Origin: Psilocybe cubensis
Taxonomy: Eukaryota
Assembly: GCA_017499595.2 (NCBI GenBank)
Contig: CM039001.1
Span: forward strand, 1,860,001-1,924,000
Reading direction: 5' to 3'
Length of the DNA: 64,000 bases
This document shows, piece by piece, positions 41,081-44,659 of the stretch. How positions within the stretch are numbered: position 1 is the stretch's first letter; every line of letters starts with the position of its first letter. The notes under the pieces are model-generated. The model had not been told where the DNA came from. It worked only from the letters and a program-made list of their open reading frames with translations, and searched no databases. A program made the translations under genes and the position numbers.

Positions 41081-43095
41081 ATGCTGTCCCCAAGCGAGCT
41101 CGCCGGCCTGCTTGTCTGTCCGTTCTGTCTCTGCCCACAGGAGCAGCCGACGACTCTCCTCTGCGGCCACTCTGTCTGTTCCCGCCATACCTTCTCTGTC
41201 TGCCCCGTCCCTGTCTGCTCTCCCAACCCACCTGCCAACTCCCCTCCCCGCATCCCCCCGCACTCTACCGTCCGCTTCCACCCTGCCCCACCCCCCCACC
41301 AACCGACCCACCCGCTCCCTAACACACCCGACATCCCCCGCCGCCCCGATGTCGTCCTCACCAGCCTCGCCGCCCTCGCTGCACGCACTCTCGCTGCCCT
41401 CCATCCCCCTCCTCCCGACGACGACGACGACCAGGACAATCGCCCTCGCAAGCGTCGCAAACACACTCATACACACTCCGATTCCGAAGACCTCCTCTCC
41501 CATCTTCGCTCCTCCGCCCTCCGCCAGCGTCTCACCCCCTCCGATGTCCCCCTCATCTCCCCCACAACCGACACCGCCCTCGCAGAGTACGACAAGCGTC
41601 TTCTCGAAGAGCTTACCTGCCACATATGCTATGTTCTTTTCTATCAGCCAGTGACCACCCCCTGTCAACATGTTCGTTTCCCTCCTCCCTCCCCATATGC
41701 CTCTCACCTCTCTTTCTCCAGACTTTCTGCGCAAAGTGCATCCAGCGCTCTATCGATCACAGTCCAAAGTGTCCAATCTGTAGAGACGACATTCCCCATT
41801 CCTATTTTCACGATCATCCAGTCAACAAGCTGCTGCTTACTATCAGTTTGTCTCTTTCTCACTTTCCACCCTAATCTCTCCTCATTTCTCCCAGTTCTCA
41901 GAGCTTTTCCTCTCCTCTATCGCGAGCGCGCAGAATCTATCCAGCAAGACGAACGCCATGCACGTCTCAATACCCCCATATTCCAGTGCACCCTCGCCTT
42001 TCCCGGCATCCCAACCCTCCTTCACATCTACGAGCCCAAGTTTGTCGCCCTGTTCCCTCCTTTTCCCATTGCCTCACACACTATATCAGGTATCGACTCA
42101 TGCTCCGCCGTTGTCTCGAATCTCCCCGTCCCTCTTTCGGAATGGTTATGCCTCCAAAGCCTGGTTCTCCAGAGACAAACTACGGCACCATGCTCGAAAT
42201 ACGCAGCGTTCAGATGCTAGCAGACGGCAGAAGCATGGTTGAGACCTGGGGTGTCTCGCGCTTTCGTATCCTAGAGCGGGGTACACTCGATGGCTACATG
42301 GTCGCCAGGGTAGAGAGGTGCTGTTTATTCCCCCCTCTCTCATCTCTCTCCCCGCGCTCACTCCAAGCAGGATAGACGATTACCCGGATGAACTGACCGA
42401 CGCCCTTCTCGACGTCCCTGAACCCCCTTCCCCGACTCCCTCCCCATCCTCCACCACTACTACGCGCCGTCGCACAACTCCCTCTTCCTCTCGCACATCC
42501 ATATCCCCTCCCCGCACTCCACCATACCCAACAAACGAGGAGCTCATCTCCACCTGCAAAGCCTTCGTAGAATCCATCAAGCGGGGATCCGCCCCTTGGG
42601 TTGTCCAGCGTCTCTCAACCACATATCTCGTCATGCCATCCGACCCTGCCCTGTTCGCATTCTGGGTCGCCCACGTTCTACCCATCGAAGAAGAGGAAAA
42701 GGCCAAGATGCTCCCCATCCGGAGCTCCCGCATGAGGCTGTTGCTGGCAGTCCATTGGATTGAGCAACTGAATAACAATTGGTACGCGACTACTTCGTCA
42801 AGTCTTTTTGTGTTCCAGCAGAGGGTGCTGAGGTGGTTGCTTGTGGGCCCTGTCCCCCTGCTGTTCCCGCTGCTGTTGGTCATTTGGTTCTTTGTGTCTC
42901 GTGTGTTTTGGAGTTTGGGTGCGGGTTCAGTTGTTGCAACCACCTCTGGTCTGGGTTCTGGTTCCGGCAGGGTGTGATGTTATTCTGTAAACCGAGTTTT
43001 ACTTACGGTCGTCTTTTTTTTTTATGGTACTGTTTGTTGTTTTCTTTTCCCTCGTGTGTCCCAGGTGGTTCACGAATGGATGCACGATTCTGTGA
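41081..43095 (+). CDS. crgA: RING-finger and LON N-terminal domain E3 ligase (CrgA/LONRF-like)
   Basis: Cys-rich CPFC...TTLLCGHSVC, RING CHICYVLFYQPVTTPCQH|TFCAKC...CPICR, LON domain LAFPGIPTLLHIYEPK|YRLMLRRCLE...YGTMLEIRSVQMLADGRS. The spliced C-terminus is GCTIL* (CaaX). Confidence 0.85.
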
Positions 43096-44659
43096 CAATC
43101 TGCCTTGCTTGATCTTTTTGCGATCTCCTCCTTTGCTTTTGTACTCTCTTTTTTTTTTTCTTGGGATATCTAGGGTAGGTGATTTTCTCCTCGCGACCGC
43201 TCGTACGCTGATTCTACTGCACAGTCCACTCTATACACCGGCATCATTAATACTCATATCAAGGAAGTTTGCTACACTCGCGGAACCTGGGAGAGAAGTC
43301 TCCTATCATCATCATTTTTGGGAGTTGGATCTAGTTGTATCTACCTAGTATTTGGATTGATTAATGCTCGCGTCGATTGGACGCGAAGGTTGTTGACGGT
43401 TGTTTATGTCTGTGGGTGGGCGGTCGATCGATCGGCGCGGTTAGGCTTGGCGGCGGCGGGCGTGATTAATGGTAGCGCAGGATGATGAATTGTCCAGACT
43501 ATGAGCTGATGTCATTGGTCTTGTTTCGCATCAAATCTGGCGTGCATTTAAAAAGTGCCATGAGATACTCGGCTCAATCGTAAACTACCGATTAACGGTG
43601 TTCCCATTCTCGGACTCGGCCAGTTCTGCCAGGGCGTTGGTCGTGGCTACAGCGGCGATTTGTTCCCCACTGGCCCAGCGCGATGTGATCCCGTAGTATC
43701 ACCGCATCAGCATCAACTTCTTTGCCTGGCATTGGCACTGAGTGTGGGACAACAACCCTTGAGGTCTCGACCACATCAACTAGTTACTATTACTGTACAT
43801 CAACGTACTGGTTTAATGGTGAGTCGCGTGTGGTACCAATCTCACAGTGGGCACAGGGCTTTGAAGAACCGTGGAACGTCGGCGCATGGGTATGAGCGGA
43901 GACTTGAGAAAAACAACCAGATCCACCAGTCTATATCTTATACAGCTCCTTGAAACCCCCTTTGGTACTTGGCTCTGCTTTTTTAACATCCACGTACCCG
44001 GATTTCTGGTGGCTGTCCCTTGGGAAACCGTTCATGGACGCCTGAAAGAGAAAAATGAAGGAATCAAGCTGTTTCGGGATCCAGCAAACGTCAAGTTGTC
44101 ATGCAATATCCTCGATCCTGATGCCGGTGGTTGGAGACAAGGAAGACGTTATATGTATGTAAATGCTCCTCTTGCAGTGGCAAGATCCACGCCTATAAGT
44201 CAAGTACCACCGTAACCTGGCTTATCTTTCGTAAGGTAAGTTTACTTTTAAAAAAATGCCTCTCTGACCGCTTCCATGCCTGCTATAGTACAGCCGAACT
44301 TATTGCAAAGAGGGATATAATCGATTGACGCCACTGTAATATCCACCTGTCCGACATCGGCCAAGATGCGAGGGTGCGCCTAAAATTCGTACATAACACC
44401 ACTGACGGCCCACGATACGTCCATTGCTTCAGAACCCTCTGCCCAGGCTGTAGCAATCCGCATATTTGGACAAACCGGCTGAACGTGCTAGCTCGCTCGG
44501 AACCACAGGAATTCCTTGAGCGCTCCTTTGTCATTGGGTTGGCATATGGAACGGGTCACTCGCGACATGCAATTGGAAGAGTATTTATTGTACACACGAT
44601 TCATGCCTCGGAAAACTTATCATCACTGCGAAATTTTTGTGTCTCAAGCACTTTCAGTG

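Follow-up and report, generated by a model that had tools for sequence, protein, structure and literature searches.

CrgA of Mucor circinelloides is a repressor of light-induced carotenogenesis, and the animal proteins LONRF1-3 are ligases with a RING and a LON N-terminal domain, for which we know of no lipid or membrane-spanning anchor. CrgA is described as a protein with two RING fingers and a LON domain, with glutamine-rich regions, and with an isoprenylation site at its C-terminus, and CarS of Fusarium is a related RING-RING-LON regulator without the isoprenylation site (PMC5715946 section 7). Here we describe a gene of similar architecture in a stretch of 64,000 nucleotides of the Psilocybe cubensis genome (contig CM039001.1, positions 1,860,001 to 1,924,000), hereafter called the window, whose numbering is used throughout. 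The gene is predicted to code for an E3 ubiquitin ligase of the CrgA/LONRF type, in which two RING fingers, of which the first is degenerate, are accompanied by a LON substrate-binding domain. From the comparison of related sequences, this single ligase probably has two conserved ends: a CaaX box if the last intron is removed, and a tail-anchor-like segment if it is kept, both isoforms being predicted for P. cubensis.

Compared by described architecture only, the window protein shares RING, LON_substr_bdg, and CaaX with CrgA, and the label "CrgA-like" in the original prediction agrees with the account given in section 7 of PMC5715946. It differs in that no glutamine-rich regions were noticed in it, and that section mentions no such alternative tail across the membrane for CrgA. 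CarS differs in another way, since it lacks the isoprenylation site while the Agaricomycete family keeps the CaaX box almost universally. C-terminal targeting swaps are known in fungi, and we found no published description of one that exchanges a prenyl box for a tail anchor. In Ustilago, alternative splicing or read-through at the 3' end reportedly swaps a C-terminal targeting signal, giving peroxisomal PTS1 isoforms. The likeness is that a small 3'-terminal splicing choice changes the targeting signal of an otherwise identical protein; the difference is that here a prenylation box is exchanged for a membrane tail, and the alternative end is coded by the intron itself. Exitrons are protein-coding retained introns that lie inside an exon and usually have a length that is a multiple of 3. 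They resemble the present case in that intron sequence is coding when retained, but the intron studied here is a terminal one at an ancestral position, and in the family its 3' splice site often doubles as the stop codon. LONRF1-3 have the same domain pair as the window protein. SKI7/HBS1, an ancient conserved fungal alternative splicing event that gives two functional proteins, is likewise a rare splicing choice conserved across large clades, but it concerns another gene and another mechanism, with no change of membrane anchor (PMC3597508). Literature searches, with term searches in the available text of PMC10282164 (first part only) and PMC12232718, returned no description of this splicing choice, of a prenyl-box/tail-anchor swap, of a coding terminal intron in the family, or of mushroom isoforms of the gene.

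The gene lies on the forward strand, starts with the ATG at 41081, and has six exons separated by introns of 50, 49, 50, 53, and 283 nucleotides (nt), all of the GT...AG type (Table 1). The last intron had been predicted to be several times the usual size here, and it measures 283 nt against 49-53 nt for the other four; every coordinate and sequence given for its splicing was correct on recomputation. It splits the first W codon (TG/G). Its removal gives the C-terminus ...NNNWWFTNGCTIL and, with all introns removed, a coding sequence of 1530 nt for 509 amino acids (aa), ending in ...HWIEQLNNNWWFTNGCTIL before the closing TGA at 43093-43095. This is the CaaX end with Leu that had been proposed, CTIL, with Cys at -4, Thr (not aliphatic) as a1, Ile as a2, and Leu as X. 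When the intron is kept, the product has 564 aa, and its tail (WYATTSSSLFVFQQRVLRWLLVGPVPLLFPLLLVIWFFVSRVFWSLGAGSVVATTSGLGSGSGRV) runs from WYATTSSS through WLLVGPVPLLFPLLLVIWFFVSRVFWSLG to GRV; the estimate of about 65 codons to a stop at 42977 was exact. The hydrophobicity of such tails is given below as the maximum Kyte-Doolittle mean over 19 residues (KD19). In the window, 21 residues follow the hydrophobic core, and the open reading frames (ORFs) of the Hebeloma type end 0-3 residues past the segment. The rest of the P. cubensis ligase was judged non-hydrophobic by eye, which leaves a single hydrophobic segment near the C-terminus, as in tail-anchored proteins. The candidate branch point has the same CTYAC motif as related long introns and is similar to the ctcac found in introns 1, 3, and 4, and the last 87 nt of the intron are 52% T. 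Near the end of the retained ORF (42940-42971), a short repeat of the GGT/TCT type codes for GLGSGSG; the tails of the homologue P0002 and of P. cyanescens also have Gly/Ser-rich ends, of other lengths, and the stretch looks like a repeat expansion rather than a conserved feature. A 37-nt mini-intron at 42782-42818 (acceptor ttccag, product ending in NNNCRGC) was rejected, as it is under the 47-nt minimum of the family here and its product is unlike any homologue.

The CaaX end is the norm in the family. Among the C-termini of 137 homologues, NxNW-WF..GC-a-a-X directly forms the end of 73 and a read-through hydrophobic tail (KD19 at least 1.6) that of 32, four have a hydrophobic tail followed by R-WF..GC-a-a-X, and 14 read through into non-hydrophobic sequence; the remainder are truncated (8) or lack the anchor motif (6). 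The CaaX form was found in Boletales, Russulales, Polyporales, Hymenochaetales, Atheliales, Gloeophyllales, Cantharellales, and several families of Agaricales, and a CaaX box, ...NxNW-WFxxGC-a-a-X, is predicted to be the ancestral C-terminus of this ligase in Agaricomycetes. Because the 283-nt splice recreates the family C-terminus exactly, including the W-W junction, the splice sites in the window are considered real and ancestral. At position X, the family is highly variable (L, I, V, F, S, G, M, A, C, N, and T). Leu at this position favours geranylgeranyltransferase I, as the original prediction had said of CaaL, and the P. cubensis protein may be geranylgeranylated, but Leu is only one of the X residues of the family. 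Models from Rhizoctonia/Ceratobasidium in the Cantharellales (P0024-P0037 and P0128) end in ...NNNWWFSSGCVVG or ...NNNWWFSSGTWIILQLFRR, which suggests that the intron of that order lies five codons further downstream than in Agaricales and that its CaaX box has an unusual X, Gly. Opposite annotations occur within a species, as in Agaricus bisporus (P0014 versus P0015 and P0138) and Termitomyces (P0046 versus P0073 and P0088), and within a genus, as in Lyophyllum (P0047 from L. atratum versus P0038 from L. shimeji).

A metagenome scan gave 73 related loci with DNA, of which 68 have the W codon followed by AG and an intact WF..GC mini-exon with its stop; in the other five, the contig breaks off or the motif is absent. 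All 33 loci with a long terminal intron (84-337 nt) carry the intact mini-exon. They keep its phase, the Cys at -4, and the stop, with conservative variants (CTIL, CTVL, CNVL, CNVV, CHIV, CVIL, and CNIL), and diverged loci share 20-28 of its 31 nt, whereas the 3' untranslated region (3'UTR) next to it is at baseline. The mini-exon is intact in the long-intron loci, where mere 3'UTR should have decayed. These observations bear on the possibility that these mushrooms make the retained protein alone, the one given by the deposited P. cubensis model, and that the mini-exon is a relic. The 32 deposited or predicted models that end in a hydrophobic tail would fit it, as would the one cDNA-like contig that keeps the intron (L007, see below). 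It is nevertheless very improbable, given the conservation of the mini-exon in 33 of 33 long-intron loci and the preservation of the GTAC/GTAT donor, the branch point, and the acceptor.

The openness of the retained frame in the window says little by itself. The terminal intron has 10% A, and among 20,000 mononucleotide shuffles of it, 3822 were open for at least 65 codons, 1292 reached a KD19 of at least 2.44, and 736 did both. All three frames of the intron are nearly open. In another forward frame, 190 aa are open from 42776 to 43348, spanning the intron and the last exon and reaching into the 3' flank, there being few stops in A-poor DNA. Openness and hydrophobicity were thus rejected as weak evidence: the frame of the window alone is not beyond chance, and it is the conservation across species that exceeds chance.

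That conservation was measured against composition-matched shuffles (n = 300) with the donor-encoded residues excluded. The P. cubensis tail gave z-scores of 28 with P0002, 15.3 with P. cyanescens, 8.9 with Gymnopilus, 7.5 with Galerina, and 3.3 with Agrocybe pediades, and none of the 300 shuffles reached the real score in the first four comparisons. The Hebeloma tail gave 21.4 with Crepidotus, 21.2 with Crassisporium, 13.7 with Cyathus, 13.3 with Cyclocybe, 12.2 with Pholiota, 10.4 with P0006, and 8.7 with Agaricus, and it is also linked to Gymnopilus (6.2) and P. cyanescens (4.3). A GP..P-plus-hydrophobic motif is common to the Hymenogastraceae and Hebeloma-type tails. The tails of Lyophyllaceae (LLLIG type) and Psathyrellaceae (two hydrophobic segments) are, by eye, alike within each group and unlike the others. 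An unconserved frame, open by chance in T/G-rich intron DNA, can draw on the shuffle results and on the open alternative frames, but it is contradicted by the similarity of the tails across families and is the least credible of the explanations considered, with hardly any probability left to it. The caution that such DNA may translate as hydrophobic by chance was justified for openness and hydrophobicity; the z-scores across species show that the part about an unconserved frame does not hold.

At the nucleotide level, intron identity among diverged Hebeloma-type loci was 55-76%, against 43-47% in shuffled controls; 3'UTR controls gave 38-46% in five of six cases, the sixth (0.62) having only 21 aligned columns. 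Synonymous sites of exon 5 are near saturation in most pairs, with a proportion of synonymous differences (pS) of 0.66-0.95 and, in the closest pair (L005-L007), 0.30. Pairwise Nei-Gojobori counts for seven sequences, made on nucleotide alignments, gave a pooled ratio of the nonsynonymous proportion to pS (pN/pS) of 0.69 in the retention frame and of 1.09 and 0.92 in the shifted frames, and the retention frame was the lowest in eight of nine pairs, which are not independent. Together with a mini-exon that is intact in all 68 loci extending to it, these comparisons point to purifying selection on both alternative coding ends, with a modest signal on the tail; the modest signal fits a membrane anchor that needs hydrophobicity rather than an exact sequence and is overlaid with splicing signals. 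The original prediction had staked itself on conservation of the intronic hydrophobic frame, which extends across families of Agaricales together with that of the CaaX mini-exon.

The terminal introns fall into two classes. Of the 68 loci with the W codon and the mini-exon, 66 have the intron at the ancestral position and two are intronless there. The short class (33 loci, 47-73 nt) has no GTAC or GTAT donor, its donors including GTTCGT, GTGAGT, and GTCTGT, and its retained frames close early or are non-hydrophobic (KD19 at most 1.38). In the long class (33 loci and the window), every donor is GTAC or GTAT, which reads W-Y, and KD19 is 1.5-2.87 save in the L034 group (1.16). The retained ORF stops exactly on the TAG of the acceptor in 10 of 16 distinct long introns versus 1 of 28 distinct short ones. 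Such stops occur in six of 11 lineages by our own grouping (the L013 group, L007, L009, L033, L005, and the L001 group), where the introns differ in length by 9, 21, and 24 nt. The codon alignment places the CTYAC branch point within conserved V-L-T codons, about 28 nt upstream of the TAG. The stop lies 87 nt before the acceptor in the window and 56 nt before it in L006, and an ordinary 3' intron end remains there. Intron length is 1 mod 3 in eight of 12 lineages, and the retention frame is the most hydrophobic one in nine of 12. From these alignments, both tails appear to be conserved, and in most cases one excludes the other; a single protein cannot carry the membrane tail together with the CaaX box in species whose stop is the acceptor TAG.

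In P. cubensis itself, the two could be joined by a 91-nt intron (donor 42974, acceptor 43064), the protein ending in ...SGSGRV-WFTNGCTIL, perhaps as a third isoform. The GT at 42974 is in phase, its donor gtgatg resembles the gtgctg of intron 4, and both the branch point and the T-tract lie inside the 91 nt. Three Lyophyllaceae models (P0046, P0059, and P0134) and the ORF P0012 also read the tail in frame into R-WFSNGC-a-a-X, without splicing. We consider this arrangement unlikely, since it is impossible in the 10 of 16 distinct long introns whose stop is the acceptor TAG, and so is not general, and since L006 has no in-phase GT before its stop. Moreover, prenyltransferases are cytosolic, and a CaaX box that follows one membrane span would lie on the lumenal side, apart from them.

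Other variants were noted among the loci and models. In P0046, P0059, P0134, and P0012, the intron length is a multiple of 3 and the read-through places a hydrophobic segment, an Arg (acceptor AG/G), and WFSNGC-a-a-X on one protein. The Agaricaceae-type intron has 85 nt in the L013 group, with an open hydrophobic tail ending on TAG; its version in L034-L036 and L054 has 87 nt, is frameshifted midway, is less hydrophobic, and reads into the CaaX exon, and this lineage may have lost the tail isoform. Seven loci (L059-L061, L063, L064, L072, and L073) have a terminal intron of 60-66 nt, a multiple of 3, with a hydrophilic open read-through (...REI(N)DPDAF[TI]R) that would add 20-22 residues just upstream of the CaaX end; their likeness may come from close kinship. 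Outside Agaricales, models from Neolentinus (P0102, Gloeophyllales) and Obba (P0136, Polyporales) have hydrophobic read-through tails with a KD19 of 2.44 and 2.39, and hydrophobic retained tails may be wider than Agaricales or have arisen more than once.

Transcript-like sequences from relatives were found for each end. L007 is a Hebeloma-like contig of 1019 nt, in which the last 180 nt of exon 5 are 90% identical to the genomic locus L005. Intron 4 (54 nt in L005) is absent from L007, which keeps the 94-nt terminal intron with the tail frame open to the TAG and ends in A18, about 330 nt past the CaaX stop. The simplest reading of these features is that L007 would be a spliced, polyadenylated mRNA with the last intron retained. 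Its poly(A) lies downstream of the CaaX exon and not within the intron, which bears on the intronic polyadenylation offered earlier as one means of choosing the end. Among the 73 loci, only L007 ends in poly(A), and L038 is ambiguous; L022 and L029 are intronless at the terminal position but come from short-intron taxa. For the spliced form, five ORFs of a Laccaria cluster (P0048, P0155, P0156, P0158, and P0159) cross all intron positions and end in ...NWWF[ST]NGCTIL; intron 4 is the sole intron kept in P0157 of the same cluster, and the terminal intron is read through in the gene model P0152 of L. bicolor. In an Amanita muscaria cluster, P0142 is an uninterrupted ORF of 441 aa with a hydrophobic tail, and the related genomic locus L009 (1719-3029) is interrupted by inserts or stops where introns 1, 2, and 4 lie. 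P0142 is either a transcript keeping only the last intron or a gene copy that lost the other introns; if its contig is genomic, this would be an unusual intron loss that spared the 3'-most intron. The Agaricus Logan members look genomic, as P0140 reads into intron 1 and P0139 begins at the first Met of exon 5. A homologue search with the Hebeloma tail returned eight proteins, all already known, and no transcript-derived tail isoforms. The retained form was thus seen in a Hebeloma-like fungus and the spliced form in Laccaria, never both in one species. Together with the spliced-end norm and the conservation of the tail, these transcripts support the central proposal of the original prediction, that one ligase would have either a CaaX or a tail-anchor-like end.

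Several points weigh against two functional ends, the first being that composition by itself is fairly often expected to yield an open and hydrophobic frame. The codon signal is weak, with a tail pN/pS of 0.21-0.92 against 0.06-0.22 for the LON domain. The intron DNA of the window is at baseline (0.48 versus 0.46 with L006, 0.51 versus 0.49 with L005) and, as it cannot be aligned above baseline to either, the evidence for the lineage of the window is at the peptide level only. The peptides come from read-through gene models, an ascertainment bias for openness though not for similarity. Conservation at the 3' end partly overlaps splicing signals, CTYAC falling in the VLT codons and the last 21 nt or so being near-identical, even at synonymous sites. 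The pairs and lineages compared are phylogenetically non-independent, and one lineage (L034-L036, L054) has a 2-nt indel that frameshifts the tail. As for transcripts, L007 is a single contig whose A18 could be genomic, and the genomic DNA of the L001 group also lacks intron 4; there was no P. cubensis transcript ORF among the homologues gathered.

Several of these points would suit another account, in which only the spliced CaaX protein matters, the frame is compositional, the conservation reflects splicing signals or a regulatory RNA element, and retained transcripts are noise. It gains from the open hydrophobic frames of the shuffles, the weak codon signal, the conserved branch point and 3' end, the frameshift in the L034 group, and a tail pS (0.53-0.72) that is below the exon pS in most pairs, implying constraint at the nucleotide level. 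It does not account for the middle of the tail (GW..GP..P.L.W), which is conserved with synonymous changes and across the 9-, 21-, and 24-nt indels, or for the lowest pN/pS falling in the retention frame in eight of nine pairs. Tails unrelated in sequence (Hebeloma, LLLIG-type Lyophyllaceae, two-segment Psathyrellaceae, L033, and L011) all prove hydrophobic when read in the retention frame, stops on the acceptor TAG are far more frequent in long than in short introns, and the tail-ORF part of the intron has 33% G against 6-13% in introns 1-4 of the gene. On balance, we regard the CaaX-only account as rather unlikely, although it is the strongest of the alternatives, and favour a ligase with two ends.

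For such a ligase, we propose the following course. In Agaricales, the terminal intron would have lengthened from about 50-70 nt to 84-337 nt, and its sequence would now extend the reading frame by a hydrophobic, anchor-like tail. When it is removed, the 31-nt mini-exon would supply the CaaX end and the protein would be attached peripherally through a prenyl lipid. When it is kept, translation would stop inside the intron, at the TGA at 42975 in the window and at the acceptor TAG itself in many relatives, and the ligase, without CaaX, would be inserted into a membrane by its C-terminus, the last 45 or so residues acting as the tail anchor. Since a terminal intron leaves no exon junction after the stop, the retained mRNA would escape nonsense-mediated decay. 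The choice of end in P. cubensis is possibly regulated by light or development. In its broadest form, the proposal is a tentative one, which we hold at slightly less than even confidence: across Agaricales, the terminal intron would be an element with two uses, preserved for about as long as the order has existed, in which the donor reads W-Y-A, the body codes for the tail anchor, the branch point reads V-L-T, and the TAG is the stop. One E3 ligase could then be either attached reversibly by a prenyl group or inserted permanently into a membrane, with light or development possibly controlling the switch.

The remaining features of the gene agree with its assignment (Table 1). Exon 1 is colinear with the orthologues P0003, P0005, and P0013, which carry precomputed matches to PF00097, PF13923, and PF13920 (RING). 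PF02190 is above its Pfam cut-off on both exon 4 and exon 5; the RING score of exon 2 is under the cut-off because intron 1 splits the finger, and the C-x2-C...C-x-H...C-x2-C pattern is visible in the spliced protein. Exon 5 codes for a sequence with 100% identity to P0001, the deposited P. cubensis protein, which NCBI names "LON peptidase N-terminal domain and RING finger protein 3". This model (597 aa) takes the retained C-terminal end, and it also reads in frame through introns 1 and 2 (41672-41894; ...CQHVRFPPPSPYASHLSF...), breaking the second RING. Besides its choice of C-terminal end, the read-through of introns 1 and 2 is likely a gene-model error.

Table 1. Exons of the predicted RING/LON ligase gene and elements of its terminal intron, in window coordinates.
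Feature	Position	Strand	Remarks
Exon 1	41081..41671	+	start codon, degenerate RING1, first half of RING2; weak RING matches at residues 13-34 and 180-197
Exon 2	41722..41845	+	second half of RING2 (TFCAKCIQRSIDHSPKCPICR...); zf-C3HC4_2 E 2e-5, 24.8 bits (cut-off 27)
Exon 3	41895..42039	+	colinear with orthologues
Exon 4	42090..42317	+	LON substrate-binding domain, N-terminal half; PF02190 E 1.1e-8, 35.7 bits (cut-off 28.7)
Exon 5	42371..42781	+	low-complexity linker and LON C-terminal half; PF02190 E 9.5e-7, 29.4 bits; ends in ...HWIEQLNNN + TG
Retained-frame tail	42780..42977	+	W + 64 codons + TGA at 42975-42977
Terminal intron	42782..43064	+	283 nt, phase 2, ancestral position; donor TG/gtacgc, acceptor cccag/G
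Hydrophobic core WLLVGPVPLLFPLLLVIWFFVSRVFW	42834..42911	+	candidate membrane-spanning segment, KD19 2.44
Possible in-phase alternative donor gtgatg	42974..42979	+	overlaps the stop; read from sequence
Candidate branch point cttac	43002..43006	+	59 nt upstream of the acceptor; T-rich tract after it at 43010-43059
Last mini-exon	43065..43095	+	31 nt: G + WFTNGCTIL + TGA; CaaX Cys codon at 43081-43083

Public annotations of this family are split, with a CaaX end in 73 of the 137 models and hydrophobic tails in 36, and these are models to be corrected and annotated as two isoforms. To our knowledge, functional alternative splicing conserved over a large clade is rare in fungi. If both ends are functional, the terminal intron would be an example of an intron that evolved into coding sequence with its splicing signals kept and the TAG of its splice site reused as a stop codon. 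The location of the ligase would then change between a lipid-anchored, releasable form and a membrane-inserted one, and with it the substrates that the ligase meets.

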